DNA of 64,000 nucleotides from Eledone cirrhosa (Eukaryota): contig OZ024741.1 in NCBI GenBank assembly GCA_964016885.1, positions 206,088,001 through 206,152,000 of the forward strand, in the 5' to 3' direction. Under the pieces are notes generated by a model, which did no database searches, was not told where the DNA came from, and saw only the letters and a program-made list of their open reading frames with translations. The translations under genes were made by a program, and so were the position numbers. Within the stretch, counting starts at the first letter, position 1. The number at the start of each line of letters is the position of its first letter. Below, piece by piece: positions 3,583 to 52,918 of this stretch.

Positions 3583-3937
3583 TAGAGGTTATATTTAATT
3601 TGTTGGGATACAACAAGCAAAATATTTTTATAACTGATATAAAGCACTCAACAAATTATTGGAGTAAATATACAATATATTAACAAATGGAAACTATATT
3701 TATAAAACCATATTTATTTCATTATACATATTTCAAGGGCCACCAAGGTAAACTATGGTGCGCTTTCATTAGATTCCAACCAGAATGGTTGCATTTTTTA
3801 AGGGTATGTCAATATTTATTTATAAAACTAACCTATATTATATTTTATCTAATGAAAGCGCACCATAGTTTACCTTGGTGGCCCTTGAAATATGTATAAT
3901 GAAATAAATATGGTTTTATAAATATAGTTTACATTTG

Positions 3938-3942
<5 letters not shown>
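3583..3942 (+). mobile_element. ORF-less PLE-pLTR mini-element with inverted copy; HHR at 3842-3905 (core mutated to CTAATGA)
   Basis: 3679-3772 is the reverse complement of 3847-3942; stem I ATTTTAT/ATGAAAT; homolog 52760-52917 has intact CTGATGA; (TA)n on both sides. Confidence 0.7.
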
Positions 3943-3982
<40 letters not shown>

Positions 3983-3984
<2 letters not shown>

Positions 3985-5749: not shown

Positions 5750-7148
5750 AACTGGAACGTTACAACCCTTACAGGCAAAAAGCAGGGGCTAGTGGAGGAG
5801 GCCAGATGCTACTGATATAATCGTGGGTTTCTCATCAAAGTTCTGTGATTTGGATGGAGTATAGAAATACCACTATTCAGTTTCAGCGCTAGAAAAGATT
5901 GTACAGGCGGGAGTGAGGATACTCACAAGACCTCGGTTGAACGGGATCCAATTAGGCAGGAGGATTTGCTTAGGTTGAAAGAAAGGTATCTGTGGGTGGT
6001 GAAAGTTGTGCACCAAATAGAGAGTTTTAATACAGATCCTTCCTTGATGAAGTCATTGCAGTATTATATGTAGTTAAGACTGAGTTACATATCCCAACGG
6101 GAGACTTCAATGTACATGTTGGCATTGACCACCTGACATGGAAAGGAGTGATTAGAAGGAACGGTTATCCCAATCTAAATACAAATGGAGAGAGCTTATA
6201 ACTTCTGTTCTAATAATGGGCCCTCTATTATGAACACATTCTTCCAGCATAAAGACATCCACAAATATACACGATATAAGGGGAATCGGGGATAGAGATC
6301 AGTAATTGATTTTTATACTGTCTCTGATCTCTTCGATTCTGGGCTGGATGTTCATGTTAAGAGAAGAGCTGAGCTGTCAACGAGAGCAGGAATGGAAATC
6401 AGTGCAGGGAAGACTGAGACACTCCTCTTCTCAAGAAAGCCTCTACAGTGCACTCTACATGTGAATAGAGTTCCACTGAAGCAGGTAAAGAAGTTGAAGT
6501 ATCTCGAGGATGTTTTTACAATTGATGGTAGGCAGGAGGCTAAATTAAGTGCAAGAATTGCAGGAACTGGTGCAATAATATGCCAACTTCAGCATTTGGT
6601 TATCAGAAGATGGGAGGTATGTGTAAAAGCCGAACTCGCTATCTTCAATTCAGTATTCGTGCCAACCTTTTCCTATGGTCATAAATCTTTGGCAATGACC
6701 AAAATAATGTGTTCGCGAATACAAGCAGCCGAAATGTGGTTCCTCCGAAGGGTAGTTGGAGTATTGTTATTCAATAGAGTGTGTAGTTTGGAGACCAGGG
6801 AGTCACTCCAGGAAGAGCAACTGCTTCTCCAAATTGTGATATCACAGTTCCGATACTACGGACATGTGGTCAGAACACCTAATGAAAGAATCGCTAGACA
6901 ACCGACAGAAGACCCAGGCGTAGATACTTGGACAAGATGGCAAGATAACATCCATGAACTGAGCATGGTCTCGATTGGGGTTCCAGTCGTATACTCTAGG
7001 GACAGTTGCTCCTGACAGGAACGGGTGGAAGGCGCGCTTGAAGGTCGTGCTCCATGACCTTCCCAGGAAGAAGAAGAAGAAGAAGAAGAAGAAGAAGAAG
7101 AAGAAGAAGAAGAAGAAGAAGAAGAAGAAGAAGAAGAAGAAGAAGAAA
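5750..7148 (+). mobile_element. Decayed, internally deleted RTE-clade LINE with (GAA)n tail
   Basis: APE motifs (GDFNVHVG, NTFFQHK) at 6100-6380 joined to RT C-terminus (IQAAEMWFLRR, RYYGHVVR) in ORF 6392-7015; (GAA)n at 7067-7148. Confidence 0.8.
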
Positions 7149-7770: not shown

Positions 7771-10297
7771 TTAGCTCTTAGCTCTCAGTCCGGATTGTTC
7801 CGTCGTGAACATAAGTCAATCAATCGTCTTCAACGCTGTCGGTCGGCAGCAGGTCATTGACATCAGTGCCAGGTGATATTGAGTTTGTAGGTCGCTTTGG
7901 AATGACCACCGACAGGTCATCTTCAGTCGGCCTCTTTTCCGCTTGCTTTAGGGTAGAGTCCATGTCATCACCGTTTTGGACGGGCGATATTCAGTGAGGC
8001 ACAGAATGTGACCCGCAAAACGGAACCAACACTCTGTGACGATCTTGTGCAGTGTACGTGACCTTGCTTCCGCAGGACCTTTTCGTTCCTAACGCGATCT
8101 CGCCAGGCGACCTTTAGAATCTTACGCAGACTCCTTTGATGGAAAGTGTTTAGACGCCTATCTGTTTTGGTAGTGTGTTTCTACACTTCTCAGGAATAGA
8201 TAGCCATGGGAAGTACAATGCTGGTGTACAGGCACAGCTTGATGTACGTACTAATGACTGTGTTTGACCAAATCGAGTGCATCCGTTGGAATACTACGAT
8301 CGCCTTACCAATCCTTCAGTTGATGCTCAGCTCGATGTCACAGTTGCTCAGGATGTTGCCAAGGTACTTGAAGTGGTCTATCAGGTCCAGCTCACGTTGG
8401 CTCACCTTATCTGCCTGGCCTGGGTCACTTCCCACCTTCGTAACCTTGGTCTTTTCGGTGTTGACTCGTAACCCGATCGTCTCACCATTCAGCTGCAGGG
8501 AGGTTGTTAGGTCCTGCAGGTTTGTACTGTCCTCAGATAGCAAGGCGATGTCGTCCGCAAATTCCAGGTCTTTCAGCCAGGATATCCCTGCCCACAAGAT
8601 CCCCCGACCTGCTCCGTCGGCAGTTCTTTTCATCACGAAATCAACTGCCAGCAGGAACAACAGGAGAAAAGATGCAGTCTTGTCTGAGCCCGGATTCGGT
8701 TTATTATGCAACAGCTAGAGTTGGAGTACAGGTCTTTGAAGATGGTGATGAACCTCTGTGGAATACCACACAAGCATGCAATGTTCCACAGCACTTCCCT
8801 GTGCTCTCTGGAAAATGCTTTTTAAAAGTCAATGAAGTTGACTGCCAGCGGCTTTTGAAGCTCGATGCATTTCTCAATGGTGTTGTGCAATAAAAAGATA
8901 TGTTTAGCACATGAGTGGTTGCTTCGGAAACCTGCTTGTTCTCTGAGCATAGTGGCTACATCGTGTCGGCGCCGTCGTAGCAACACTGTGCTGAACACTT
9001 TGCCGAGACCGACAGCAATGTAAATCCACGCCAGTTAATACAATCTGTTAGATTCCCCTCCTTCAACAATTTAACGATGACTCCCTGTTGCCATCCGAGA
9101 GGCACTTGTCCGTCTTACCAGTAGCGGTTTATATGTCTGGTCAGTGTTGTGATAGCATTGTCATCATCAAACTTCAGCATCTCTGCTGAGGTCTCGTCGA
9201 GTCCTACGGCCTTGTTGTTCTTGTTCGCATCTCTTGTTTCCTGTTCGGTAATTTGGTCTTCACAGACTTGGAGTGTTGCATCAGTTGCCGCTGGCTCTGA
9301 GTTAAAGGCAAATAGGGCACTTGGAAACGGTTGGTTTACTGTCTCCCCTCTCTGGTCTTGTTCGTCTGCTGTCACCAGGGTCTTGCCACTTTTGTCTTTT
9401 ATTGGCATAGATGGATTGCTCCTTGTCCCAGTCATCACTTACATGATGCGGTAAAGGTTTCTTGTGTCGTTTCGACTGGCTGTTTTTTCTGCTTCTTCTT
9501 TTTTCTTTTCCAGCGAGGATCGTCTGTCCAGTCGGCAGCTTTTCTTCACCTGTCGGTTGAGATGGCTGTATGCAGGATCCGTTTCTTCTTTTCTTCCTCT
9601 GTTTTGGCAGTGTCCCTTTCTCTTTTTGCCTTTGTCCACTCATCAATCAGTTCCAAGTAGGTTCACAAAACCACTGCTCTCTCCTCATTCTGCGCCTTCT
9701 CACAGCCCCCTGCACTGCTTCAGTCACGGCAGCTGTAAATAGCGCTCACTGTTCTCCTAGGTCCGCTGTCTCACCCAGCTGCTGACATCGGTTCTTTAAG
9801 CTTCTCTACCGCGTACGGCCTCGGCCTTTCTCGCTGTATCCGTTTCTTCAGGCGCACCTGTAGATTGGCTTGCAGCAGATGGTGGTCCGAGCCAACGCCT
9901 GCACCCGTATACACTCTGACATTGTGTACTGAGGATCTCCAGCGCTAACTAACGCATATATAGTCGATCTCGTTTTTGGTGACATTATCCATAGACTGTC
10001 ACGTGGCCTTATGTATGGCTTTGCGCTTAAAGTAGGAGTTGCCGACGCTTAGGCTGTTCCCAGCGCAGAACAGCAGCCACCGTTCGCCAGTGTCTGTGGT
10101 CCTCCTAGCGGAACCAAATTATCCAATGACCTGTTCCAGTTCCTCCATGCTGCCCTTCAACTGGACATTGAAGCTACAGATGCGAAGTTTGATGTAGTAG
10201 CTGGACAATTCATAGCAGCTGATGTAGAAGTCATCCTTTGTAGCGGCATCACTGTTCTCTGCCAGAGCAAAGACCTGTACCATGGTGGTCCTCGAGC
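7771..10297 (-). mobile_element. Decayed RTE-clade LINE (APE + RT)
   Basis: Minus-strand DLEFADDIALL, LRVNTEKTKV, FKYLG, KAVGLDETSAEMLK, GSDHHLL; many frameshifts; short GAGCTAA tail repeat. Confidence 0.88.
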
Positions 10298-12869: not shown

Positions 12870-13345
12870 ATATTCCTGATGAAGAACTTATGTCTGAAAC
12901 GTCAAACCACTTCCATCAAGCGCGAACCTAATATAACTGTGTACAATTGCCTCCTGTGTTTTGTTCGTTCATTTTCAACAAATTGTGATATTTTGCATTT
13001 TCGCAATATTATACACAACTGAATTCATTCGCCTAATATAGGTGTTGCCTCCCTTGCTGAACCCCACGTGGGGTCAGTTACAGATACATTTATGTGGGCA
13101 TTCGAACTGAATCCCGTTGACAGCGCGTACTCCCAGTTCAGTCATAGTACCAGAAGCCTAACATCCTTTATGTAAGTGGACAGTAAATGACGTATGGAGC
13201 CGCAGAAACTCAAATACTGGATTTTACCATCTCTCCAGGGGTCCGGGTAAATTTTCAACCATATATGTTTTTATATATTTTTATATTTGTATATCTGTTT
13301 GACCCGAATTAGGCGGTCGATTTTTCGCTGTGCGGATGATTAGTT
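12870..13345 (+). mobile_element. Non-autonomous element: HHR-like motif (12876-12903) followed by structured domain copy B (13019-13341)
   Basis: CTGATGA-AGA..TCT-GAAACGTC; downstream blocks homologous to 4502-4825. Confidence 0.6.
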
Positions 13346-13369: not shown

Positions 13370-14178
13370 AATCAGAGGATGCTCTGAAACTCCCGCACTC
13401 CCTTCCCTCCGGTGAAACTCTCGTGGTATCTAACAACATCAGAGACGTGGACAGCAACATAAGCTGGGCCACGCATATAAGCAGCAAAGTTGACATGGCC
13501 CGCAGAATGTTTTCCTGGATCCTCAGTCGAGAGATTCCCACACCATTATCCTTCTCTTCTTCACTTTTGCCCGACCACACCTTGAATACTGTTGTCCACT
13601 GTGGTCTCCCCACACGAAACAAAGTATCATGAAACTTGAAGCTTCCCAAAGGGCAATCACGAAAAAGATAGATGGCATGTCAGACCTTGACTACTGGGGT
13701 CGACTAGAAAAGCTGAAACTTTACTCACTCCAACGTCGCCGTGAGCGTTATATTATCTGCATGATGTGGAAAATGTTTCATCAGCACTGCCCAAATGATG
13801 TTGGCATCACCTTCAAAATACACCCAAGCCTTGGGCCCCGTGCTATCCGTCCCAAACAAAAATCTTAATCGCAACTCATAACAACAATACGGCACAATTA
13901 TTTCACCTCAATTGGCCCTGCTCTCTTCAACATCACACCAGGACACGTCAAAACAGAAACTGACCACACACAATTCAAGAAGTCTTTGGACAAATTCCTC
14001 CAAGTAATCCCGGACAAACCACCCACACCCGGATATGTCTCCGCAAACAGTAATTCTCTTCTCGAATGGGCCATGGTGCCCAAATCCTGAATTAAAAGAC
14101 TTCGCCAGGTGGTGCTATTAAGTTAGATGTGGCCTGGCCAATACTGGCCAAAACATTTCAAAGTTATTCAAAGTTAAG

Positions 14179-14324: not shown

Positions 14325-14431
14325 GAATATATATATATATGTATATATATATACATATATATATATATACATATATATATATGTACATATATATATATAC
14401 ATATATATATATACATATATATATATACATA

Positions 14432-16377
14432 TATGAAGACAAACATAGAATATTCGAAAATATTCTGTATGTTTATAATAAACATTTTGAAGACCCAATC
14501 GCTATAGAATAGAATACGTCACGTATTACAATTTGAGATTCTCGATAAAAGCAAGGGAAGTAACCTACGCGTTTCATTCTTATTAGAAATCATCAGGATT
14601 ACATATCCAATGCTTTTATCGAGAACGACACAGCTAGAGACTTATAGAATACTTAGCTGTGTACAGGAACTGGTTTGAAAGAGCGGCAGCCGGTCCGGCA
14701 GAAATTAAAATTTGGATATAATGCTCTGAAATAGCGATATATATGTGAAGACAAACATAGAATATTCGAAAATATTCTGTATGTTTATAATAAACATTTT
14801 GAAGACCCAATCGCTATAGAATAGAATACGTCACGTATTACAATTTGAGATTCTCGATAAAAGCAAGGGAAGTAACCTACGCGTTTCATTCTTATTAGAA
14901 ATCATCAGGATTACATATCCAATGCTTTTATCGAGAACGACACAGCTAGAGACTTATAGAATACTTAGCTGTGTACAGGAACTGGTTTGAAAGAGCGGTA
15001 GCCGGTCCGGCAGAAATTAGAATTTGGATATAATGCTCTGAAATAGCGATATATATGTGAAGACAAACAGAATATTCGAAAATATTCTGTATGTTTATAA
15101 TAAACATTTTGAAGACCCAATCGCTATAGAATAGAATACGTCACGTATTACAATTTGAGATTCTCCAAACCAGTTCCTGTACACAGCTAAGTATTCTATA
15201 AGTCTCTAGCTGTGTCGTTCTCGATAAAAGCATTGGATATGTAATCCTGATGATTTCTAATAAGAATGAAACGCGTAGGTTACTTCCCTTGCTTTTATCG
15301 AGAATCTCAAATTGTAATACGTGACGTATTCTATTCTATAGCGATTGGGTCTTCAAAATGTTTATTATAAACATACAGAATATTTTCGAATATTCTATGT
15401 TTGTCTTCACATATATATCGCTATTTCAGAGCATTATATCCAAATTCTAATTTCTGCCGGACCGGCTACCGCTCTTTCAAACCAGTTCCTGTACACAGCT
15501 AAGTATTCTATAAGTCTCTAGCTGTGTCGTTCTCGATAAAAGCATTGGATATGTAATCCTGATGATTTCTAATAAGAATGAAACGCGTAGGTTACTTCCC
15601 TTGCTTTTATCGAGAATCTCAAATTGTAATACGTGACGTATTCTATTCTATAGCGATTGGGTCTTCAAAATGTTTATTATAAACATACAGAATATTTTCG
15701 AATATTCTATGTTTGTTTTCACATATATATCGCTATTTCAGAGCATTATATCCAAATTCTAATTTCTGCCGGACCGGCTACCGCTCTTTCAAACCAGTTC
15801 CTGTACACAGCTAAGTATTCTAAAAGTCTCTAGCTGTGTCGTTCTCGATAAAAGCATTGGATATTTAATCCTGATGATTTCTAATAAGAATGAAACGCGT
15901 AGGTTACTTCCCTTGCTTTTATCGAGAATCTCAAATTGTAATACGTGACGTATTCTATTCTATAGCGATTGGGTCTTCAAAATGTTTATTATAAACATAC
16001 AGAATATTTTCGAATATTCTATGTTTGTCTTCACATATATATCGCTATTTCAGAGCATTATATCCAAATTCTAATTTCTGCCGGACCGGCTACCGCTCTT
16101 TCAAACCAGTTCCTGTACACAGCTAAGTATTCTATAAGTCTCTAGCTGTGTCGTTCTCGATAAAAGCATTGGATATGTAATCCTGATGATTTCTAATAAG
16201 AATGAAACGCGTAGGTTACTTCCCTTGCTTTTATCGAGAATCTCAAATTGTAATACGTGACGTATTCTATTCTATAGCGATTGGGTCTTCAAAATGTTTA
16301 TTATAAACATACAGAATATTTTCGAATATTCTATGTTTGTCTTCACATATATATCGCTATTTCAGAGCATTATATCC
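14432..16377. repeat. 312-bp tandem array with one HHR per unit (retrozyme-like); ~2.3 minus-strand units then ~3.9 plus-strand units, inversion at 15165/15166
   Basis: Unit landmarks at 14435/14747/15059 and 15241/15553/15865/16177; near-identical units; long (TA)n flanks. Confidence 0.93.
15241..15283 (+). ncRNA. Type-I hammerhead ribozyme (also at 15553, 15865, 16177 on +; 14560-14602 and 14872-14914 on -)
   Basis: GTAATC-CTGATGA-tTTCT aata AGAAt-GAAAC-GC-GTA-GGTTAC; stem I extended by TCTCGATAAAAGCA/TGCTTTTATCGAGA. Confidence 0.9.
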
Positions 16378-17505
<1,128 letters not shown>

Positions 17506-18484: not shown

Positions 18485-20118
18485 ATATGGAGAAGTTTAT
18501 GAAACGGAAATGCGGGTATAAATAATTTATTAGGTAACAATTGTTTCTATAGTGTATGGGTTACCTATACCTATCCATAAGGATCTCCCGACTGTCGTCT
18601 AATTTGCAGACCTTCAACGAGCATGCTGAATATTATAATGACGCACTTAGAAAAGCTGGTTACTGCGAGAAAATAGAAAATCTAGACGATAACCACATAA
18701 GTACTATGAATAAAACACATCTAAGTCGAACTAGTATTGCACCACACACACACACATCAATAGGCATACTAATAGGTGCAAACCAGCAAATAGAGTCAGA
18801 CGTAGAGAGTACATATGGTATAACCACGTGTACAATATTTCTATTAGCACTAAAATTATATCACAATTCTATACACTAATCAATAAACACTTTACAACTT
18901 CATATAAATACTATAAAATCTTTAACTCGCGCACTATTAGACTCTCATACTCCACTGCACCTAACATAGAACAACTAATTAAAAAACTCAACTCAGCAAT
19001 ACTAAATAAGTACATCCCTAATGACTCAGCGCACCAGCATAGCAACATACAACACACTAACACGTAACTACAACCCCACCAAACCATCCAGGATACTACT
19101 GCAGAACCTAAAAATAATTGTAACTGCACCAAACCAGGTACGTGCCCACTGAATAACCAGTGCCTAGCACGCAATATTGTCTAGCGATGTACAATAAATT
19201 CCGGAACCAACAAATGGTATTACGTCGGATGTACCGCAACTTCTTTCAAAGATCGCCTATACCAACATCGATCTTCGATCAGGCACGAGAAAATGCGCTC
19301 CGTAACAACCCTCGCCGATAAAGCCTGGCAGCTCCGGAGGAACAATCAAGCATTCTCCCTTGATTGGCAAATTATTTCAGCTGCGCCTGCATATAAGCAA
19401 AATCATCGATTCTGTAAATTATGCAATATGGAGATATACTGCATTTTAACGTCGGTAAACAAACTTTTGAACAGCAAAATTGAACGTTCACTGTATTGTA
19501 ACCATCGTTTGAAAACGACTTTTTCTGTTTTTAAATGCATGTAATGTTACCTTTTTACACCACCGTTTGCAAATTTCTGTTTTATATGTTTATACACAAG
19601 ATATGGCTTTCTATAATAATAGTACTAAACACTGTTTTCTGGACCCCTTTAGAAATAACCTGCTACTATAATAGCCCCAATAACTTGTCTGTAACTCTGT
19701 ACCACTTTGACCCCTTTAACTAAATTTTGTCCAAACAACACCACTAGAAAAATTTACTTCCCCCGCCAACCCTAACATGCCTCATTAAGCTAACTGCTGC
19801 CAAAACTTTCTCTCCTTACAATCTCTACTAGTCTGACAGTCTTAAATCCTAGGACTCCCTCCCCCTTACTCACTTCCCTCTTCCCCTTCTCTTCCTACCT
19901 CCTTCTTTCTCTTTTATCTAGTGTATGAAATATTTTCATATCATTCCAATACAAAGGTCTGACGACATGGTGTGTTTGCTTGCAGTGTACCTTCGGTTTA
20001 TGATAATATTTTTATATTATTCAAATAGCGAGGTATAGGTAACCCATACACTATAGAAACAATTGTTACCTAATAAATTCTTTATACCCGCATTTCCGTT
20101 TCATAAACTTCTTCTCTA
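18485..20118 (+). mobile_element. 5'-truncated Nematis-type PLE with short inverted 5' pLTR copy
   Basis: SIRISRLSS..YYNDAL, LSYSTAPN, CNC..CPL..C knuckle, YYVGCT..FKDRLYQH (GIY-YIG), decayed; ~18490-18572 is the reverse complement of ~20031-20113. Confidence 0.88.
19955..20071 (+). ncRNA. Type-I hammerhead ribozyme with extended, branched stem II
   Basis: AGGT-CTGACGA-CATGGTGTGT...ATACACTATA-GAAAC-AATT-GTT-ACCT-AATAAA. Confidence 0.82.
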
Positions 20119-20229
20119 TATATATATACATATATATATATACATATATATATATATACATATATATATACATATATATAAATATACATATATATATATA
20201 CATATATATATACATATATATAAATATAC

Positions 20230-20282
<53 letters not shown>

Positions 20283-20314
20283 CATATAAATATAAATGTA
20301 TACATATATATACA

Positions 20315-20358
<44 letters not shown>

Positions 20359-20393
20359 TGTGAGAAAAACCACAGACCCTCCATCTCAACTCA

Positions 20394-20431
20394 CCTTTTG
20401 AAAAGCAGAAGAACTGCGAAACCGGTAAAGG
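20394..20431 (+). ncRNA. Minimal type-I hammerhead ribozyme, U3-A8 core variant, in a ~210-bp element (20360-20568) between (TA)n tracts
   Basis: CCTT-TTGAAAA-GCAG aagaa CTGC-GAAAC-CG-GTA-AAGG then AATAAA. Confidence 0.8.
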
Positions 20432-20562
20432 AACCAAATAAATATATATATTTCTTTTAAAAATAAGACTTCAGTTGCATTTTCGATTTCATCTCTTTTT
20501 CTTTATACTTTCACTCGTGTAGGACACCTCGGTTATTTTTCATTTTGTAAAAAAAAACTCAC

Positions 20563-20634
<72 letters not shown>

Positions 20635-20637
20635 CCA

Positions 20638-20670
<33 letters not shown>

Positions 20671-20737
20671 AGACATATACTGGAACAAATATACAAATGT
20701 ATGAATAACATCAAATACAATTCAGTGCATATGGTAC

Positions 20738-21065
20738 CTTAAAGTTGGCTGATCTAAATATTCCCAAGTCATAATAGTAAACAATGGTGTCCAACAAATG
20801 AAGAACTCTAAGACCACAACAAAAAGCATCTTGATAACTCGTTTCTTGTTTTTTAGGCTGCGCTCTTGTTGAACTTGTTGAATAGATAAATTCTCTGCGG
20901 TTTGGAAGCTGACGCTGCGGTTTGTACTGTGATGAGTTCGATTCTCAGAAGAGTTGTAACTATCATTTATGCTGTTGGAACTGGCATTTGTCAGTTCAGT
21001 AGTTGAAGAAGACTCCTGTTTCCGCTGTGTTGGTTCATTTCTACTTTTGCTTTTGGATTTGTTTC
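20738..21065 (-). CDS. CCKR: Internal exon of a cholecystokinin/sulfakinin-type class A GPCR (ICL3-TM6-ECL3)
   Basis: Acceptor ttttttatttctctacAG, donor AAG/GTacca; 328 bp open frame ending ...SLKNKKRVIKMLFVVVLEFFICWTPLFTIMTWEYLDQPTL, the KKRV.KMLFV.VLEFFICWTP motif of CCK/sulfakinin receptors. Confidence 0.88.
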
Positions 21066-21917
21066 CTGTAGAGAAATAAAAAAAATAGGACGAAAAATAT
21101 CATGTACAGAGAAGTGAGATTCCATAAAATGCAAACTACATATAACAATAACACCAATTGTAATAACTAGTTATTATGATAATACAAAACACCAACAAAT
21201 GTCAAAAACGAAAGGTCTGCACTTTACAGCAATCCCTGAGAAAATTCTACACAAAACCCCGACTTACTCTGTCACACCAAGGGTATTGAAAGTACTCTCT
21301 CACGTTCCTTTCCTCCTGCTTAGAAAAATATAATCGAAGTAGTTTTATTCAGCCAGGTCAATCTTGCCGATTTCGCCCATCTTCTGAAAACTACACTAAA
21401 CGGCAGCATCTCCCTATCTATCCCCACCTCCCCCCTAAATTTGTACTCAAAATCTTCAGCTCTGTGTTCAGTAGAGTTACGGGTTTGAAGTTCTCTATCT
21501 CGTCACTCTTTATTCGGCTCCATTCTTAGCAGTTACCACTCCTCAGCTCACACAACTGGGTATATTTCCAGTCTACTGTCCGCTGCAACAGACGACTACC
21601 AAAACAGGTAGTGACTTGATTTTATATCAAGTGTGTTCAATCAAGACTGCTCAGTAACTAAACAACAACAACAGTTTCAACAAATACTACTACAATTTTC
21701 TTTTAATTCTGGTATACCAATAAGCTACTTTATTAAAATTATATATACATAAAAGCTAAGATATCTTTACAGTCACTGCAGATTCCCTTAAAGAATGATT
21801 AGTGACAGATTTACATAGCTGACTTCGTTTGCCTTGCATGAATAGATTTACCTCAATTCAAATCAGAGATCTGTTTTGAAGTAGCATTTAATATATTGAG
21901 ACTGCGTCACTGAGCTG

Positions 21918-25555: not shown

Positions 25556-26584
25556 ATATGTGTGTGTTTATATGCGTATATATATGTGCATGTTTGTGTA
25601 ATCACGTGTAAGTGTCTACCTCGTTAAATACATAAGGCTACCTTAAGTAAGAGTGAGTTAAATGCACAAATAACAGATTCAACAAGGTGTTTATTGATCC
25701 CTTTGTTGTCTAGGCACGTAATCTAGACTTTATTTAAATAAACTATACTCTATTTAACTTTGAAATTGGCAATGCTTTGCGCATTTTCTAAAAAGGGAAT
25801 ATTAAATTACAAACAGCTTTAATGATTTACGTGATGAATAAAAAATGAATTCGAAAAAGAACACAAAATACACAGAAAAGTTTGTTTCACTGACCGAATA
25901 TAACTGATGACAAAATGTTAATGTATAATATGCAACTCCCACGAAGATGTTCACACAAATTTAAACGACAAATCTCAATTCTCTTAACTGACTTACCTGC
26001 CGTCAACCGCGACAATAACGTATTCGAGATTGTAACTTAACGCTACGTTTCATCATTTATAAGAATTTTGAGACTTGAAATATTGAATTAGAAAAGTGAA
26101 TGTCCTACTTCATAGAAATAAATGTTGGGCACTGGAGTAGCTAAACCTGCCAGTAGGAGAAAGAGGGAGAGGGGTGGAGGAGACCCATTCATGCGTTGAT
26201 AGTGCCGACTACAGCTGGGCAGGAGGTCAAAGAAAATACTAGGGAGGGGGAGGGGGAGGAAGTCGAAACAATAAGTAGAACAATAAGGGGTAAATATATA
26301 GAAAAAACTGAGAGTGTTAAAAAGCAATTAAATGTAAAAAAAAAAAATTAAAAAAAAAACAATTTCTGGTTACTACGACCTAAGTCTCTCACTGGTACTG
26401 CTAGGCTAAAAAAATATACTAGGTGGGACGGAATTATAATGAGACCCTTTTAAGAGGTATAAGTAATAAACCGAGTATATCTTACGGTGACGGGTTAACA
26501 AGTGAGGGGCCAAAATACTAAAGAAACTACCACGAAATAATAAATAAAGGTTTCTACCCCAGGCACAAGGCCAGCAACCACCCA

Positions 26585-28466
26585 AAACTCCGGAGCAACT
26601 TAACAGAGTATGATAACATCAATGACATCATGGTGCACTCGGATAAAACTGGGAACCTCTACTTTGTCAACCCCGACAGATACCACACACTGATCAGGAG
26701 CAACCTAAACTCCACCTATAAAAAGGCTAACCACTCATGCATCGAGGACATAAATCGAGATGGACAACAAATTACCTCCAGCCTCGGGGTCGCCGACCGC
26801 ACGGAACCCCTACACCCACGGACACCCTACTTCACACCGAAGGACCACAAATCTGATTTCGACCGTAAACCTTCTATCAGGCTTATAAACCCAACGAAGT
26901 CCGACATAGGGAGAATCAGCAAAAAAATCCTAGACCGCGTGATACCAAAAGTTAAGCAACACGTCCGACTTAGCCTATAGGTCAACACCAGTAAGTAATC
27001 TCATGGTTCAGCAATATGGAGGAAAAACGAGACACTAAATTCATCCAGTTTGACATAGAGAGTTACTATGCTTCAATCACCTTACCGCTACTTACGGCTG
27101 CCTTGGACTTCGCCGAAGCACTTGTGTCCATCACCGACCAGGAAAGAAACATCATCCTCCACGCCAGGAAGACAGTCTTACTCTTCGACAACTCCAAATG
27201 GATAAAAAGAGCTCCCGACTCACCCTTCGACGTCAGCACAGGCGCGACGGATTCGGCTGAGGTCACAGATCTTATAGGATTATTCCTAATAGCCAAACTC
27301 ACCGATATGTTTCCTGCATTCGGCGGTGGATTGTACCGTGATGATGGGCTCCTTACACTTAAAGGGTACAACCCCAGTAGTACAGATCGGGTCCGTAAAC
27401 AATTAATCAGCTTCTTCCGCGACTGGGGATTTAAAATAACCCTAAAAACGTCCCTGACCCGAGTAAACTTCCTGGACGTTACCCTCGACCTCGATAATGA
27501 TCTGTACTACCCATACAGGAAACCTAACGACAACCTGCACTACATCCACCGCCGGTCAAACCATCCTAGGAACATCACCAATAACCTGGTTAAAAACATC
27601 TCCCTCCGCATATCCCGTTTGTCAGCTAATGAGCAGATATTCGATGAATATGCGCCTTATTACAACCAGGCCCTCAAGCGGAGTGGTTTCCGGGAGGAAA
27701 TATCCTACTGTCCAACTCCCATTAGCGGAACCAGCAGGCGACATCGCCGCTCACGCAATGTAACATGGTTCAATCCTCCCCACAACGCCGAGGTGACAAC
27801 TCCTATCGGGAAAATCTTCTTTAGGCTCATGAAAAACACTTCCCACTACAACACCGCTACCACAACATAATTAACAAAAATACCACCAAACTCTCTTACG
27901 GCACTACACCAAACTTTGCACAAAACATCGTCTCCTCTAACAACAAAAAACTCAACCCCTATGGAAGAAATAACCTAAATAGCAGTGGAGAGCCGACCAG
28001 GAGGTGCAACTGTCCTGATGGATCCATTTGCCCCCTCGACAACAGATGCAGAGATCGTAATGTGATCTACCAGTGCAACGTGAGGACGGACACCTCCAAC
28101 AAAGCTTATATAGGATTAACCGCATGTGACTTCAAGACCCGGCTATACCAACACAGACATACCTTCCGAAACCCGGCCCGGCGTCACGCCACTACACTTT
28201 CGGGCTACATATGGGACCTCAAGGATAACAACATTACCTATGATCTCACTTGGAGCTTACTGTCCAGAGCCAACTCTTACACGGGAGGACGCCGTCCGTG
28301 CAATTTATGCTCGGAGGAAACTTTACAAATGTTGTTTTCGACGGACCAACTCCTAAACAAGAAAGATGAATTGGTTACTGCATGTAAACACAGATTGCGT
28401 AGGACTTACCTCGCCCTCAAACCCCATAATGACCGGGGGGGGGGGGGGGGTAGACTAGGGCTATAA
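26585..28466 (+). pseudogene. PLE reverse transcriptase + GIY-YIG endonuclease (stops near 26980-26997, frameshift near 27835)
   Basis: SDKTGNLY, IRLINPTKSDIG, QFDIESYY, GLYRDDGL, NFLDVTLDL, YRKPN, WFNPP, CNC..CPL..C, IYQC..YIGLT..FKTRLYQH. Confidence 0.93.
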
Positions 28467-30110: not shown

Positions 30111-30893
30111 AGTATCGTCTTCCTGTCTTCCTCCGGTTGCAACGTTTTTTGAAATATTCAGACACGAGTAGTTCGTTCGGAGCAAATTTTATCACTGGGG
30201 TGTTATAAAAAACACCCTAAAAAAAAACCTCTTCCACTCTTGTCATGCCAGTGGCTGTTTTTACTCCACGTCATCTTAAGTTCTGGTCACACGGGTCATC
30301 AGCCATTTTCCGTCCGACACACTTCAATGGAGTCATGCTGGGTCAGCATCTCACACGTTTTTATTATATAATGTATTTTTAATTTACGGTTTTGTTTATA
30401 TATGTATATGTGGAAACATGTGTGTGTAAGCAAATATGCAAATGTGCAGGTGTCTGCATGTGGCAGTCCGTGTGCGTATGTATATGTAGATGTATATATG
30501 TCTGCATGTATAAATGTATATGTGTGGGTGTGCGTATGCATGTAGTGATTTTTTGTATATATATATATATATGTGTGTGTATGTATGTGTGTATGTAATT
30601 TTGTGTACGTATGTGTATTTTGTATGTATGTGTGTGCATGTGTGTATATATACATATGTATATATATATATATGTGTGTGTGTATGTATATATGTGTGCG
30701 TATGAGTGTATATATATAAATGTATATAAGGTTTTGCGTAGTTATGTGTCGGACGGAAAATGGCTGATGACCAGAATTTAAGATGACGTGGAGTAAAAAC
30801 AGCCAATGGCATGACAAGAGTGGAAGAGGGTTTTTTTAGGGTGTTTTTTTATGATAACACCCCAGTGATAAAATTTGCTCCGAACGAACTACC

Positions 30894-30984
30894 CGTGTCT
30901 GAAGGAACCTGCAGCCGTAGAATCAGCCAAATCCATACAGGGACCATATCTCTAGCTACCTACTGGCGAAACAATTGTAACACG
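30894..30984 (+). ncRNA. Atypical hammerhead-like motif in pLTR (second copy 35284-35374)
   Basis: CGTGT-CTGAAGG...GCCGTAG/CTACTGGC-GAAAC-AATT-GTA-ACACG-c-AATAAA; core-to-stem II junction is non-canonical. Confidence 0.6.
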
Positions 30985-31162
30985 CAATAAATTGAGTCCA
31001 GATGCATCACTGATTTTTCGTTTTCTTTATACTATCTACACTCTACTCTGCTGAATATTGAGTGCTAATTTTGGCATACCGCTTATGGAAGCACCATAGC
31101 TACCATTATGCACTACTATATACTACGCTCCTCCATAAGTAGAGCGCTTACAGCGATCCGCC

Positions 31163-34075
31163 ATGGAAAAATTCAATTACTCTTCTTCCCTGAAAGACAT
31201 ACCAATCCCGTCTGATAATACGTACATGGGCCTGCTGATATACCACACCAACTCGTTCATCAGACGCATGAGGTGGCGCGCATTTCACCCCGACAGGCGG
31301 ACACAACAACACGCGCCCGACGCCCCTCAGGACTGCCTAAAGCGGATATTTAGATATAGAAGACACCCACTGCATAATGCACAGCTGGAGGAATTTGAAA
31401 ACCGTATAATCAACATAGTTCGTAACATCAAGTTCCATAGGAATAGTGCACGGCGGACCAAATATCTCTAAAGTCTTAGCTCCACCATCAAAAGCATGGA
31501 AAAATGCCAGGATTTACTAGTGCCTTCGGACAAAACTGGTAATGTATACATGCTTGACCGTTTTACATACAACGACTGCCTCGGAAAAGAGATTAAGAAA
31601 AACTATAGGACCACAGGACAGACAAATTTAGATAATATTAACGCCACGACAAAAAGTATACTGACGGGGCTAGGACTAGAGGATAGGACCGAGGTATATG
31701 TACCGAGAAAACCACGGATATCTATTAAGGACCATAAATTAGACTTTAAAACAAAACTACCGGTTAGGTTAATAGCACCCTCCAAATCTGACCTAGGCAG
31801 GACCAGCAAGAATATTATAGATAGGATACTACCGGTACTTAGAAACAAAACTAAGCTTAGTCTATGGACCTCCACTAAGGAGGTAATTGACTGGTTCTCG
31901 TTAATAGGTGACAAACACCAAGTAAATTTTATTCAGTTAGGCATAGATAGCTATTACGAGTCAGTATCTCCGATACTAGTCAATAAGGCCCTCATAAGCG
32001 CCATGGCCAGATCTAGCCTCACTAGGAAGGAGACCAACCTCATAGTAGCAGCCAGAAATACGCTAATTAGATTCGAAGACAAGTTATGGGAGAGGAGGGA
32101 CATACCCGACAGTTTCGATATCACCATGGGGTCGAGTGACTCGGCGCAGGTGACCGACTTTGTGGGGATATATCTCATCCATAGGCTAACGGAGGAGATC
32201 CTGGGGATCGGAGGGTGAATATACAGAGCCGACGCACTTTTCACCTTCCGTTCCCTTAACCCCAGTCAGATGGAGCGTATGAGGAAGCGCATATCGCATT
32301 TTTTTAAACAACACGGCTTATCCGTGACAATAGACCCTAGCACTAAGACGGTCAATTTCCTGGACGTTACCTTGGAAATGAATACGGGCATCCACAGACC
32401 GTACCATAAGCCCAACGAAAACCTGCAATATGTGAACAGGCAATCGAATCATCCTAAGTCAGTCATAGAAGCCATAGTTAAAGGGGTATTCAAACGCGTA
32501 TCCACCCTGTCGTCGAACGCAGAAGTGTTTAAACAGCACGCCAAATATTATAATGAGGCACTGTGTAGGGCCGGTTACACAGACACCATACTATACACCC
32601 CGGACAGAGTAGAGCCAAGTCATAAGGCGTGCACAAATGCCAATAACGGGGGCGCCTCCTTAGGTAGAAGAAATGACCCGGTAGCAGTATCCAGGAACAC
32701 AAATAGCAACACAACTACCTTTAATGACGCAGGACCGACCTGAGGTAGGACAAAGGCACCCATAGGAGCCAGACCACCCAGTACGCGGAGGCATGGGCCT
32801 GGTACGCACACTGCATGCTCCGTGGCAACTGGGACCAGGGACAGGACATCGACAAATACGGACGGGGCACACGCCAGGGAGCACGCCCAGCCTGGTTGTA
32901 GTGGTACAGCACCGACAGCAGCATCACATAGACCTAAGGGGAATAAACGTATAGCTGACCACATAGAACGACGTAACTTTATAACTGTAGGGCATAACGC
33001 CGACGCCCATAGCGGGAAAATAGACAGAGTCAACACACGGGATGTAATTGTGGTTGGGCCGAGCACAGGAGGGACATCGTGTCCTGGACACACCAACAGG
33101 AATTCACGCACACGAAGGAACAAATCTAAGGCCGTTACTTGGTTCAATGCGCCTTAATCCAAACATGTACGCACCAACGTGCCAGGACATTTTTCCCGAG
33201 CGTTGGATGAGTGCTTTTCGCCGACGAACAAGTACCACAAAATCTTCAACCGCCACACGGTGAAGTTTTCCTTCTCCACGGCACCTAATATGGCCGACTA
33301 CATGGCTAAAACTAACGCGGTGAAGATGGCGCACACTGGCCGTCAACTGCGGCGACAGAGTGACCGTCTTTCGGAGCGCAGTCAACCACCCAGGGACCTG
33401 CCCTCAATTGACAACCCGGCCCCCGATGCGACCAGAGCACCCGCGGAGGGTGATGTGGTCCAACGCCGAGAGGGAAATAGTGGTATGGGGGAGACAACAG
33501 TGTCGGCGGTACAACACCCTGAGAACCTTGGGAGGGCCATAGCAGATCGAGGCCCGGACATCGGATGCGTAAGAACTGACAACAGAACTTGTAACTGCAG
33601 AGCGGGCACCCGGTGGCCCCTACTGGGAAAATGCCTGATGAAGGACCTAATATACAAGTGTGTGGTTACAACCCAAAACGCACATCACACCTACATCGGC
33701 GCAACATCCACGACCTTTAAATCGCGGATGTATAATCACACGAATTCCTTCAGGGACCGTAGCAAAAGGCACTCCACTAGGTTAGCGGACCTGGTGTGGG
33801 ACCTGAAAGACCAAAGCACTCCGTACGTTCTGGAATGGAGAATCGTTCGCCACGCGAGGGCATATTCGGCCGGAAGTAGAAAGCGCCGATTATGCCTACA
33901 CGAGGCCAAGGAGGTAGTCAGACTGAAAGATGACGCCGTCAACCTGAAGTCTGAAATTATCATGACCTGCAGACACCAGAGAGGATGCACATTTGCATCA
34001 TGGAGTCCTCCGGGTGGCGCAGGCCGGGGGCATGGGAACGGGTACGCACAGACCCGAACGGCCCAACGGGATTAG
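31163..34075 (+). pseudogene. PLE RT-GIY-YIG polyprotein, one reading frame (~970 codons) with four in-frame stops
   Basis: ORFs starting at 31163, 31496, 32270, 32822 and 33179 share a frame; YSSSLKDIPIPS, RRMRWRAF, SDKTGN, NFLDVTL, YIGATSTTFKSR; catalytic motifs altered (QLGIDSYY, IYRADA). Confidence 0.9.
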
Positions 34076-34721: not shown

Positions 34722-35503
34722 ATGTATATATGTGTGCGTATGAGTGTATATATATAAATGTATATAAGGTTGTGCGTAGGTATGTGTGCGCGCGTATGTG
34801 TGTATATAGGTGTATGTTTGCGTAGGCCATGCTTGTCGGACCGGATATATGGCGCGACTTAAGCAGACGTTAAGAGGCTCGTGGCGGTATGTATCTAGAA
34901 GTGGGTGTGATTGGGTCTGTGGAGGTGAGGGTGAGCGTATGTGTGTATATATACATGTATGTATATGTGTGGGTGTGTGTGTGTCTACGCATGTGTGCTT
35001 ACGTGTGTGTATGCACGCATGTGTCTGTTTCTGCCTGTGTGTGTATATGTGTGTGTATATTCGTATGCGTGGGTGCTTGCTTTGGAGTGTGAACAGACGT
35101 GTGAGATGCTGAACCCAGCATAACTCCATTGAAGTGTGTCAGACGGAAAATGGCTGATGACCAGAACTTAAGATGACGTGGAGTAAAAACAGCCAATGGC
35201 ATGACAAGAGTGGAAGAGGTTTTTTTTAGGGTGTTTTTTTATGATAACACCCCAGTGATAAAATTTGCTCCGAACGAACTACCCGTATCTGAAGGAACCT
35301 GCAGCCGTAGAATCAGCCAGATCCATACAGGGACCATATCTCTAGCTACCTACTGGCGAAACAATTGTAACACGCAATAAATTGAGTCCAGATGCATCAC
35401 TGATTTTTCGTTTTCTTTATACTATCTACACTCTACTCTGCTGTATATTGAGTGCTAATTTTGGCATACCGCCTATGGAAGCACCATAGCTACTATTATA
35501 CAC

Positions 35504-35554
<51 letters not shown>

Positions 35555-35555
<1 letters not shown>

Positions 35556-37204
35556 CTATTTTGTCTTATTTGAGAATAGAGCGGTTCTCAAGAGATTGCA
35601 AGAGAGACAACAAATTATGACATCACAAAGTTGGCTGCATTTGTGAATGAAGATGAGCCGAAACGTCTTCCAGAACATCGCTGTGCATATTATGAAATCA
35701 TTTCGTCAGACAGAGGAATTTTCTTTCCCGATGCTCCAGGTGACACAGGTAAACCACATGTAACAGCATTGCTTCCCTCCAATGTAAGGCAAAAAAAAAA
35801 AAAAAGAATTGCACTTGCTTCTGCACCGTCTGGACGAAGAGCTTTTTTTGCATTTAAACTACCGCTAAACCGGGTTGCAAATAACAGTCCAATTTGTAAC
35901 ATAAGCAACGATTCAGGTTCAGCAGAAGTGTTGTTCCAATTCCACCTGATCATTTGGGATGAATGCACCATGTCATATAGATGAGCAATGAAAGCTCTTG
36001 ATAAGACCTTGCAGGACATTAGAAGCAACAATACATCTATGGGAGGAGTTACATTAGTTTTATCAGGAGACTTCAGATAGACATCACCAGGGACAAGAGG
36101 TGATGAAATAAAAGCAAGAATTAAGTCTTCGCAGTTATGGAATAAAGTACACAATTTCTCTTTCAATACTAACATGGAAGCTTTATTACACTGGGACCAA
36201 TGTACAGAACAGTTTTCAACCCAATTCCTTCAATTAGGAAATAGAACAATATCAATTGATGGCAATGGTGATATCAACTTGGCTCATATTGCCATCAGGG
36301 TGGATTTCCCAGCTTAATTGAAGAACAGGATATTTCCAGACTTAAATTATAATCATAATTCACATAAATGGTTGTGTGAAAGAGCAATTCTTGCTAAAAA
36401 AGTGAGACAGTAGCAAGGATTAACCATAAACTAATGAATAAGATTCCAACAGTAATTAAGGAGTACAAATCAGTTGATTCAGTCCTTGATGTAAACGAAG
36501 CTGTGCAATACCCAACAGAGTTCCCTAATTCTCTCGAGCCCCTTGGAACTCCTCTACATAAACGTTTCCTAAAGGTTGGAGTCCCAATAATGCTTCTAAG
36601 AAATTTAGATCCCTCTAAATTATGCAATGGCATTGTGAAGGCATTATCATCTAATATGATTGAATCTGCCATCATCACTGAATATGCCTCTAGTGAAGAT
36701 GTTTTCATTACAAGAATTCCAATCAAACCAACAGACATGCAATTTGAGTTCAAACGAAGACGATTTACAGTGCAACTTTGCTTCCCAATTTTTATCAATA
36801 AAGCTGAAGGACGGACTTCGAAATCTACTGGCTTACACTTAAGTTAGGCTCGATTTACTCATGGTCAACTTTACGTTGGTTGTTCCAAGGTGGGTAGTTT
36901 ACAAGACTTATTTGTCTATGCCCCAAACCAGAAAAAAAAAAATTACCTAGAAGTTCTTACGTAATTTCTTTCAACATATGTGATAGAATTTATCTCCCCT
37001 CATAAAAGTGATACATTTTGTATTTTCACTTATTATCATTGTTTTTTGTATTATGAATTCAAAATTGATTTCATCGTGAACCTCAATTGAAGAATAAATG
37101 GTATTTAGAATAAAAAATTTCTATACAACTTGTTTTTACTTTCTTCTATTCTAATATATAAGAAACACTTTCATTCCCGGGCAATGGCGGCTGCCTCTGT
37201 TAAT
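35555..37204 (+). mobile_element. Decayed Helitron, Pif1-type helicase region and degenerate 3' end
   Basis: DAPGDTGK, IIWDECTM, VLSGDF, KVGVPIMLLRNLDPSKLCNG, FKRRRF..INKAEG, FTHGQLYVGCS; cccgggcaatggcgg hairpin remnant near 37176. Confidence 0.88.
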
Positions 37205-37821: not shown

Positions 37822-38945
37822 ATTAATTAGTTAAGCAAAACAAGACCACAAATTTCACAAGGAAGACATTATTAAAAGATTGTCAACATATTTTAGTTTG
37901 ATGTAAGGAATGTAGAGAATAATAATAATATTAATAATAATAATGTCCGTTTACAATTGTTTCGCTACTCCGTATAATATTTCTGGATCAGATGACTATA
38001 TATCATAATTGAGCTGGTTCAGTTGAAAATAATTAACATATTTAAAAAACAGAGCGGCTCATCGGAACTTCAAGGGAATATAAATTAAAATAATGAGAGA
38101 ATGTTACATAATATAATGTTCCATATATTGGTTTTTCACTATGGTGTCTTGGTTGCATCAGTTGTCAGCCATAATCAAGCAGTATTCATCTGTCGAGGCT
38201 GCATTGTGTGAGATCTGCCTATGGGTAACAAGATGGCTGCCAAAGGACATATTACCTTACTAATTAGAAGGTGGTTTCAGGAGAAGTACCTCCTCGAGAG
38301 ATTAGAAATTGTGGGTAGTTTATAGTTAAGTGCTAATTTTTAAATTTTTTAATTGAGAGACAATGTAGGGGAGGTAACTTATAATTATCTAAGTTAGTCA
38401 TAGCTATTTAACTTATTAGCTACAAGTAAAAATGGGGCTAGATGACTAAGTTGGGTCAAATATTCTATTGGCGAAGGAATTAGCCCTTCGATGTTGACAG
38501 CTAATAGTTACCTCCGTTCTATCGTTAATCGGTAGAGGTCGTGATAGAGTTATGTAATATGCTTCTGTAATACAGAGATAACAAGATTTTCTTCGTCCAT
38601 TGAACGGTTGGGCCCTAGCCACGATATCCCATTTTAGTGAGTGTTGAACGTTGCTTAATTTAATGTTTTTAATGAGCCTAGCTAGCGATGTCGAACATCT
38701 GTTGCTAGGGTCACGGAAGGAAAAAGAGTGCGCGTTATAGCGTACCTTAAAAGGGTTAGAGGTAGACCCGATGTAAGAGCTGGTATTCGAAGCAGTTTTA
38801 ACCGTGCACCTATAGACTATGTTGGGTGTCAGGCAGTGACCATTTAATGGGCATGTATTAGGGTAACGGCAGTTGCAGTTGCTTCTGCGGTTAGTGAGAG
38901 TAGGGTAGTTTAACCTAAGCGGTAGGTCAGTGTTAGAAGGATTAC
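37822..38945 (-). mobile_element. 3' fragment of Nematis-type PLE (knuckle + GIY-YIG + pLTR)
   Basis: Minus strand CNCRYPNTCPLNGHCLTPNIVYRC..SYIGSTSNPFKVRYNAH..CYLCITE..CQH. Confidence 0.87.
37949..38068 (-). ncRNA. Type-I hammerhead ribozyme, U4C core, long stem II
   Basis: GTT-CCGATGA-GCCGCTCTG...CGGAGTAGC-GAAAC-AATT-GTA-AAC. Confidence 0.72.
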
Positions 38946-39054
38946 GCTTTGGCTTCTAACTAATTCACCAATCTCTCCTCTCATATCTCCTCTTCTATCT
39001 CCACCTCTCTATTTAAGATTGGTTACTCTTGAACTGTGTATAAATATATATATA

Positions 39055-39909: not shown

Positions 39910-39940
<31 letters not shown>

Positions 39941-39942
<2 letters not shown>

Positions 39943-41432
39943 AACGTTAGAATATGTGTAATAAGGCCAAGACAATGCAGATATGGACATAGAAAAAGAA
40001 TGCAATAGTGAGAGATATTGATGAGGATTCGTCTTTCACCTTGAATTTATTTAAATGTCCTTAATTTTCGAGATAATATCTCTTCTTCGGAGGGAAGTAA
40101 AAGTCTCAGACCAGCGTCTAAATTTCCAATGAAGCCATGCTGACCGGAAATAGTATAGAGTTCTAACTTTAATATCAAAGAATTAAAATTAGGTGGGTAA
40201 AGAGTAGTCTCCCTTTAAGAGGGGTTTGTTTATGTTTTTGTTGTGTTTTTTAAATTTTATATGCGTGCCTGTATATGTGTGTGGGAGAAAGCATGAAGGT
40301 GTAGGTATGTGTGTGTGTGAGTGTGGGAAGATAGGTCTAATCGTAAAAGTGGGGGGTAGGTGTTATCTGGTGTTAGAACTGGTTTTGTGTGTGTATGTGT
40401 GAGAGAGAATAAGTGGAGGTGTGTGCGTGCGTGTGTGTGGGGTGTGTAAAGTGGGGCTAGAGGTCCTATCAGGTTATAAATTGGGTGTTGAGCTCTAGTC
40501 TATTATTGATTGGTGGATGTGTTCTATCTATAATGAGTGCTTCCTTGATTCTAAGATTACCGAGGTTTCTTTCTTTAGTTTCTATCCTAACTGTTATGTT
40601 TTTATCAGTGTTTTTGCATTTAACTAGGTGTTTCTTAAATGAGGAAGCGTTAAAAGAATAAAAGAACACCTCAATACTAACGCTTCCTCATTTAAGAAAC
40701 ACCTAGTTAAATGCAAAAACACTGATAAAAACATAACAGTTAGGATAGAAACTAAAGAAAGAAACCTCGGTAATCTTAGAATCAAGGAAGCACTCATTAT
40801 AGATAGAACACATCCACCAATCAATAATAGACTAGAGCTCAACACCCAATTTATAACCTGATAGGGCCTCTAGCCCCACTTTACACACCCCACACACACG
40901 CACGCACACACCTCCACTTATTCTCTCTCACACATACACACACAAAACCCGTTCTAACACCAGATAACACCTACCCCCCACTTTTACGATTAGACCTATC
41001 TTCCCACACTCACACACACACATACCTACACCTTCATGCTTTCTCCCACACACATATACAGGCACGCATATAAAATTTAAAAAACACAACAAAAACATAA
41101 ACAAACCCCTCTTAAAGGGAGACTACTCTTTACCCACCTAATTTTAATTCTTTGATATTAAAGTTAGAACTCTATACTATTCCCGGTCAGCATGGCTTCA
41201 TTGGAAATTTAGACGCTGGTCTGAGACTTTTACTTCCCTCCGAAGAAGAGATATTATCTCGAAAATTAAGGACATTTAAATAAATTCAAGGTGAAAGACG
41301 AATCCTCATCAATATCTCTCACTATTGCATTCTTTTTCTATGTCCATATCTGCATTGTCTTGGCCTTATTACACATATTCTAACGTTTATACCTCATTAC
41401 ACAATGCTTCAAGTGAACTATAACCTCCTCCT
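39941..41432. mobile_element. Fold-back PLE remnant: ~710-bp near-perfect inverted arms, ~25-bp spacer, Penelope/Poseidon-like GIY-YIG C-terminus, HHR-like motifs at 40059-40093 (-) and 41237-41271 (+)
   Basis: 39941-40652 vs 40678-41390; KRIKEHL..KKHL..LRIKEALII..PPIN; CCT-CCGAAGA-aGAGAT att ATCTC-GAAAATTA-AGG. Confidence 0.85.
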
Positions 41433-47439: not shown

Positions 47440-47847
47440 TATTTTCCGTTGTGTTGTAATATAAATATTACACACAGTAGATTGACAGCTCATGTAGAGT
47501 TTGCTCGACGGTTCCAGTTGAAATTCCAAAAGTAATCCGGAGAAAAATAGAAAGATTTGAATGGATACAGTTTAGTTGAAAGGAATTTATTGACACGTGT
47601 TTCTATAACAGTTACATAACCTAAAACAGCTGCTATCTACAAAGTATTAGTTATGCAGACAATCAATATTTCAATGTTATTATTTCCTGTCATTTCATCA
47701 GAATAATATTACTGAGGACCTGTTTGGTTTTTATAGAGAATATTAGGAGAGAGGGGTGAAGTTGTTAGAAGAATAGTTGAGGGAGTGGTTTTTTGATAGC
47801 AGTGAGAATTGTTGGTGGCAGTGAGTAATTAGATTCCCATATATATA

Positions 47848-51310: not shown

Positions 51311-51443
51311 GGTTTCCTTCGGCGGTTGGGTGCTTCTGGTGTCAAACAAATTTGAATTCATTCTGGAATACGGTACTAAATACGTTTCTCAACACATTAC
51401 TAGAGAAGAAGTATATTGTATATAGAAATGACTTCTGCAGGAC

Positions 51444-52878: not shown

Positions 52879-52918
52879 AAATATGGTTTTACAAATATAG
52901 TTTCCATTTGTTAATATC

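Follow-up and report, generated by a model that had tools for sequence, protein, structure and literature searches.

A hammerhead motif with a U3-A8 core beside a receptor exon of Eledone cirrhosa belongs to an abundant, probably Penelope-like, 209-bp repeat

Introduction

A 38-nt sequence in the genome of the octopod Eledone cirrhosa has the outline of a hammerhead ribozyme, carries U3 and A8 in place of the consensus core letters, and lies close to a receptor exon. Is it a real ribozyme motif, does its unusual core reflect selection on catalysis, and does its closeness to the exon have a meaning? The preliminary description of this locus took the sequence for a compact hammerhead about 300 bp from a GPCR exon and read the double change in the core as an argument for selection. 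We analyzed the motif within the whole stretch of 64,000 nucleotides (hereafter, the window), in sequencing runs that contain its carrier, and against published hammerhead families; statements on published work refer to the passages of each paper compared here. The reading that we favor, with a probability of about 0.78, is that the motif is the minimal type I hammerhead of an abundant 209-bp repeat, likely a Penelope-like terminal repeat or a non-coding derivative thereof, that U3-A8 is the norm of this repeat, and that the solitary antisense copy at this locus is probably inert.

Results

Anatomy of the hammerhead motif

Stem I, stem II, the palindrome and the GUA site were each found on the forward strand where the preliminary description had placed them, as were U3 at 20398 and A8 at 20403 in place of the consensus letters (Table 1). 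Reading of the forward strand gives four Watson-Crick pairs in stem I (20394-97 with 20428-31), a G10.1-C11.1 pair (G20405-C20417) that closes the base of stem II, a GAAA box (G12-A15.1) at 20418-21, and, at 20425-27, the GUA triplet that marks the predicted site of cleavage. This copy is intact at each of its 13 core positions, in its two helices and in its palindrome.

A strict descriptor applied to 54,692 bases of the window (both strands, dinucleotide arrays removed) returned this single U3-A8 match and none in 150 block-wise dinucleotide shuffles, a generous control since the descriptor was composed after the motif was already known; the same site was the sole U3-A8 match across all descriptor scans of the window. 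Rfam gave no match at gathering score over the window, the hammerhead family was absent among 25 weak Rfam matches in 19500-21000, and the fold of the 38-mer is not better than those of its shuffles (z -0.94); both the weak z-score and the Rfam silence are expected for a motif so small. Judged from its letters, 20394-20431 is a complete and real hammerhead motif of the dimer-dependent kind and of a published subtype. The pairing of positions 3 and 8 and the status of U3-A8 as a known variant, both put forward in the preliminary description, are supported by PMC4209133 and PMC3088659. The variant is indeed rare across hammerheads; the same cannot be said of Penelope-like elements, with about 1,300 such motifs in one genome (PMC4209133).

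Table 1. Features of the hammerhead locus and related features of the window.
Feature	Position	Strand	Basis or details
Left (TA)n-rich tract, likely insertion target	20106..20359	.	sequence
209-bp interspersed repeat unit with motif	20360..20568	+	read/contig depth in four runs
Minimal type I hammerhead motif, U3-A8 core	20394..20431	+	sequence; descriptor scans
Core positions 3-9	20398..20404	+	U3 = 20398, A8 = 20403
Stem II	20405..20417	+	20405-08 with 20414-17, 4 pairs, 5-nt loop
Six-base palindrome, stem III half-site, predicted to pair two copies	20421..20426	+
Predicted cleavage site, 3' of A17	20427..20428	+	hammerhead numbering
Tail segment weakly alike to the post-hammerhead segment of a Penelope-like terminal repeat (30745-31122, 35135-35512)	20462..20516	+
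Right (TA)n tract	20569..20670	.	sequence
Exon, cholecystokinin receptor type A-like GPCR (third inner loop + TM6)	20738..21066	-	Pfam 7tm_1, protein similarity, tblastn
312-bp array hammerheads	14560-14602, 14872-14914	-
312-bp array hammerheads	15241-15283, 15553-15595, 15866-15906, 16177-16219	+

Predicted folding and dimer formation

Stem II forms in every sense-strand fold of 38-111 nt. Within the 209-nt unit, its predicted pair probability is 0.66 and that of stem I is 0.005, and the unit as a whole folds no better than its shuffles (z +0.85). Stem III of the monomer consists of just two pairs; the duplex of two palindromes (20421-26) is predicted at -8.3 kcal/mol. The two-copy fold reaches -20.3 kcal/mol vs. 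-6.4 kcal/mol per monomer, and at minimum energy it has the palindromes paired and the stem I arms swapped, that is, the layout of a double hammerhead. In both the monomer and dimer folds, U3 is predicted to pair with A17, which would compete with U3-A8, so that cleavage would be slow at best; PMC3884650 discusses a comparable alternative pair, C3-G17. The hammerhead at 19955-20071 and those of the 312-bp array were rejected as heterodimer partners because their palindromes differ.

The 209-bp repeat unit

The motif lies 137 bases before the 3' end of a 209-bp unit, the whole or part of which was contained in 18 of the 24 listed sequencing runs, from 14 studies; seven of the 24 contain at least half of the stretch's words. 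No RNA run is listed among the carriers, which has no bearing on expression. Four runs, of DNA or unlabelled, were aligned to the unit, namely X1 (6049 contigs, possibly from the source sample) and X24 (3063 reduced-representation reads from a separate study) for organism A, X4 (226 contigs) for organism B, and X8 (three contigs) for organism E. All four have depth in 30 of the 30 bins of the unit. Among the pieces listed, copies in X1, X4 and X8 begin at or near 20360, and loose ends enter (TA)n either past 20507 or past about 20568, which corresponds to two alternative 3' ends. By rough arithmetic, organism A would have some thousands of copies or more and organism B between tens and a few thousand, with the caveat that depth is no copy number. 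Six joints are listed (6049 X1 contigs); two of these lead to the opposite strand at 20360-64 and none is head-to-tail, thus the dimer partner needed by the mechanism is not seen among them.

One near-identical contig of X8 covers 20360-20464 with one difference, outside the motif. In X4, 23 contigs diverge at 20429, directly 3' of the hammerhead, into a different AT-rich tail, which suggests a second repeat family with a common 5' part and ribozyme.

No second copy of the unit was found in the window, where the best strict local score is 28 vs. 24-31 for 20 shuffles. The stretch at 49092 was considered as a second copy and rejected (score 25 vs. a maximum of 24.5 in 40 shuffles); it is AT-rich and has no core. 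Pattern scans for family copies gave none in viral_contigs and none in genome_contigs, and the two matches in metagenome_contigs were dismissed as chance, neither having the core or stem II upstream. The window contains no tRNA gene and therefore no sign of a tRNA-derived SINE head. The literature and supplements searched yielded no account of this octopod family, and further supplements or repeat libraries may contain it; the word 'ribozyme' occurs zero times in the text compared of an Octopus repeat paper (PMC13282606). The comparison literature also included two reviews (PMC6155905, PMC6765202).

Signs of a Penelope-like origin

Three hallmarks described for Penelope-like elements in PMC8557442 are present in the unit, namely (TA)n flanks, two alternative 3' ends, and opposite-strand joints at the 5' end. 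The window also holds Penelope-like remnants, recognized by a GIY-YIG match and reverse transcriptase relatives. A 55-base part of the unit's tail resembles a Penelope-like terminal repeat elsewhere in the window with a score of 21.5; this pair was chosen by eye, and the score was reached by none of 2000 shuffles against that repeat alone and by 13 of 40 against the whole window, so the link is suggestive only. No reading frame adjoins the copy at 20360-20568 in the window, nor was any copy seen to be linked to a Penelope-like ORF.

The motif combines the features of minimal type I hammerheads of Penelope-like elements: a paired 3-8 position with GAAA and UH, a short stem I with both ends open, the G10.1-C11.1 pair, and the palindrome. 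The nucleotide that the PMC4209133 consensus places between positions 9 and 10.1 is absent; it is also missing in Hydra-2_Amil and Penelope-1_NV (PMC8557442), and since these are listed members, this criterion is not strict.

Positions 3 and 8 across the family

U3 is nearly fixed in organism A. C at 20398 accounts for 605 of 1,211,544 X1 depth (0.05%) and for 9 of 1453 X24 reads. The difference table of the runs lists 40 rows, with 49 further rows outside these. No A-to-G place at a level of at least 2% is listed for X1 or X4, and X24 counts four A-to-G places, at positions outside the rows listed. U3-A8 is thus the family norm in organism A, and the swap in the copy at 20394-20431 was therefore inherited once. 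The preliminary description had named family copies with C3-G8 as one observation that would speak against it; no C3-G8 subfamily was seen in X1 or X4 among the rows listed.

In organism B, C occupies 20398 in 21,273 of 21,552 X4 depth (98.7%, 16 contigs). The loose end of one X4 contig reads A at position 8, and its loop II is longer by one base. X4 depth over 20402-08 is 12,993 vs. the 6,142 expected if pieces were clipped at a hidden G8. The simplest reading of these values is that organism B has apparently amplified an unpaired C3-A8 core, the linkage of C3 and A8 being taken from summary tables and not from one displayed sequence. A family that passed through both steps, the C3-A8 mismatch having been amplified in organism B and the U3-A8 pair repaired in thousands of copies of organism A, is on this basis a tentative proposal.

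The helices vary across the family. Stem I lacks its fourth pair in 52% of the depth of X1 and in 80% of the reads of X24; for the G that closes the loop of stem II (20408), the altered fractions are 4% and 43%, respectively. X1 has 27 variable places among the 209; none of the 23 listed falls in the 13 core positions (P = 0.21, not significant), and the rows listed show no core change other than 20398. Conservation of the core does not measurably exceed that of the remaining repeat. The argument that the double change speaks for selection on catalysis is consequently not supported, given that the swap was inherited as a norm, that core conservation is not significant, and that organism B apparently carries C3-A8; the apparent mismatch state in particular weakens it.

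The neighboring receptor exon

The minus-strand frame 20722-21099 matches Pfam 7tm_1; of 102 protein matches, the top two are Octopus sequences with the name cholecystokinin receptor type A, at 89-90% identity. A full-length relative aligns to one exon alone in the window, at about 21066-20738 by tblastn, and the same alignment indicates that the last receptor exon is absent from the window. The GT at 20737 is the predicted splice donor of the exon. The motif is 306 bases from the exon end, which agrees with the distance given in the preliminary description, and likely lies that far into a long receptor intron. Strand, which that description left unstated, leaves this closeness without support as meaningful: the motif is on the plus strand and the exon on the minus strand, so that receptor pre-mRNA carries the reverse complement of the motif. 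The motif is not a feature of the GPCR. With respect to the host transcript strand, the criterion that applies to host-domesticated intronic hammerheads of the RECK and C10orf118 type, motif and exon are on opposite strands.

Other mobile elements and hammerheads of the window

Several other elements of the window contain hammerheads. A 312-bp unit, the copies of which are 98-99% alike, makes up an array at 14430-16378, with 2.4 copies in one orientation and 3.9 in the opposite one. Type I hammerheads of the C3-G8 form are present in six of the units (Table 1); their stem III is palindromic and their stem II starts with a U-U pair. The fold gives z -4.0. The array looks like a young non-LTR retrozyme, and real cleavage is more to be expected here than from the motif at 20394-20431. 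C3-G8 hammerheads with a stem II of about 90 nt are found at 19955-20071 (plus strand), behind a GIY-YIG remnant at 19185-19544, and at 47587-47706 (minus strand). The 378-bp direct repeats 30745-31122 and 35135-35512, which are 97.6% alike and surround a Penelope-like ORF remnant (31139-34075), contain from about 30894 and 35284 a hammerhead-like motif with G for A9 and a long stem II, the fold of which is not significant (z +1.0). A Penelope-like insertion with inverted terminal repeats at 53032-53563 and 54525-55056 (95% alike) carries another C3-G8 hammerhead in these repeats, at 53066-53103 (minus strand) and about 54985-55022 (plus strand); the GAAA box of the plus-strand copy is altered. 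The C3-G8 hammerhead-like motif at 52815-52879 (plus strand), beside (TA)n, belongs to yet another repeat family with related copies at 3665-3983, and the core of the copy near 3850 is altered. Finally, 12876-12905 (plus strand) is a minimal hammerhead-like core with no loop III and a broken stem I.

Broken remnants of Penelope-like reverse transcriptase/GIY-YIG frames were located at 18553-19544, 26522-28466, 31139-34075, 38446-38955, 50816-51341 and 53281-54822. By eye these are close to Hydra-1_Obim, and PMC8557442, in the part compared, lists one Octopus Hydra family alone. A perfect 714-bp inverted repeat (39939-41391) with 25 bases between its arms encloses a GIY-YIG-like frame. The remaining fragments, at 35580-36847, 8316-8714, 6296-7015 and 13494-13868, comprise a Pif1 helicase remnant (PF21530, likely Helitron), an RVT_1 remnant, and other LINE-like fragments.

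Discussion

The history that we propose starts from a unit with hammerhead anatomy, defined ends and (TA)n flanks. A parent copy would be transcribed on the hammerhead strand, and two copies would pair via the palindrome into a double hammerhead that is predicted to be cut after A17. A Penelope-like reverse transcriptase-endonuclease would paste the copies into (TA)n tracts; we infer this step from the (TA)n flanks, the opposite-strand joints, the 137-base position of the motif and the Penelope-like remnants in the window. The copy considered here has no second family copy in 64 kb and is antisense to the receptor transcript.

The competitor that survives best, a possibility of clearly lower standing, makes the ribozyme irrelevant to the family: G8 would have been lost first, the C3-A8 core amplified anyway, and U3 fixed by drift in one lineage, the restored pair being incidental. 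It departs from the preferred reading solely on whether the ribozyme of the family still cuts. The X4 data favor it, through the near-fixation of C at 20398 with no A-to-G place listed and through the A8 loose end with excess depth over 20402-08, although the linkage of C3 and A8 is itself drawn from summary tables. The predicted U3-A17 pair in competition with U3-A8 and the loss of the fourth stem I pair in half of X1 depth point the same way, as does a lizard element, the hammerhead mutants of which showed no reduction of insertion in vitro (PMC11167929). On the other side stand the intact core, helices and palindrome of the copy, the lack of any other core change among the rows listed, and the in vitro activity of U3-A8 ribozymes reported via PMC3088659.

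Considerably less probable is an origin of the unit as a solo monomer from a non-LTR retrozyme family that forms tandem arrays and spreads through small circular RNAs. Its 209-bp size, low GC and lack of an ORF fit such a family; solo monomers are common in these families, which are kin to Penelope-like terminal repeats (PMC7229834; bioRxiv 10.64898/2026.07.22.740005), and a tandem array of that kind, although of another family, is present at 14430-16378. However, the unit is solo in the window and none of the six listed joints is head-to-tail, the extended stem I of canonical retrozyme hammerheads is lacking, and the folding of the unit does not exceed that of its shuffles.

It is very improbable that the copy was taken over by the host, cutting RNA at the receptor locus and tuning cholecystokinin-receptor expression. 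The copy is near the exon and keeps its full pairs, including the fourth pair of stem I that about half of the family depth has lost; however, it is on the wrong strand for receptor pre-mRNA, is one among thousands of copies with no dimer partner in the window, and shares the window with at least 10 other hammerhead-like motifs, so that one near an exon is expected. A chance match can be dismissed almost entirely, since the weak 38-mer fold and the silence of Rfam are set against the empty shuffles, a motif common to the whole repeat family, and its placement where Penelope-like elements carry theirs.

Taken singly, the motif at this locus matters little. U3-A8 hammerheads in Penelope-like elements were published in 2014 and natural U3-A8 cores in 2011; what is new is an octopod example with thousands of copies. 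If paired and unpaired cores do occur in one family, cleavage and amplification would be directly comparable, and the two-step core change, if true, would amount to a natural experiment on whether the spread of Penelope-type elements requires cleavage by their hammerheads.

Comparison with known systems

The unit resembles the metazoan non-LTR retrozymes (PMC7229834; bioRxiv 10.64898/2026.07.22.740005) in its short length, its non-coding nature and its type I hammerhead, and in the occurrence of solo intron copies. Retrozymes are defined by tandem copies, whereas none were seen for the 209-bp family among the six listed joints or in the window. The natural U3-A8 covariants of Perreault et al., 2011 (PMC3088659) share the compensated 3-8 pair, and in vitro activity is cited there; in contrast to the present case, the passages compared hold no placement in molluscan repeats, and they give no U3-A8 rates. 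In the lizard element of PMC11167929, single mutants of position 3 or 8 were inactive and the double mutant was partially rescued, and this ribozyme depends on the protein of the element. A literature search for the kinetics of mutants at the 3-8 pair returned no paper.

Hydra-clade Penelope-like elements target (TA)n, including Hydra-1_Obim of Octopus bimaculoides (Craig et al., 2021, PMC8557442). The 209-bp unit shares this target, and its sense-strand hammerhead falls within the range of about 100-200 bases before the 3' end; a four-pair stem II and a short self-complementary stem III are often found in their hammerheads as well. All motifs tabled in that paper are C3-G8, unlike the U3-A8 motif described here, and the octopod family sequence was not found in the supplement searched. 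The same paper calls the function of Penelope-like hammerheads unclear, as does PMC11167929.

The closest core is found in the Cercyon Penelope-like elements of Schistosoma mansoni, for which Cervera and De la Pena, 2014 (PMC4209133) described about 1,300 minimal U3-A8 hammerheads, mostly solitary. In their assay of an S. mansoni minimal hammerhead, the monomer gave no cleavage and the dimer low cleavage. The Eledone motif differs from Cercyon hammerheads in its stem II of four pairs (vs. seven or eight in most of their families), in having no extra base after position 9, in its stem III of two pairs with a 2-nt palindromic loop, and in its GUA site, octopod host and lack of a linked ORF. It agrees with them in being type I, in the short stem I, G10.1-C11.1 pair and palindromic stem III half-site, in the predicted dimer, and in being mostly solitary; moreover, its U3-A8 core is identical in all seven letters to that of the S. 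mansoni(4) motif.
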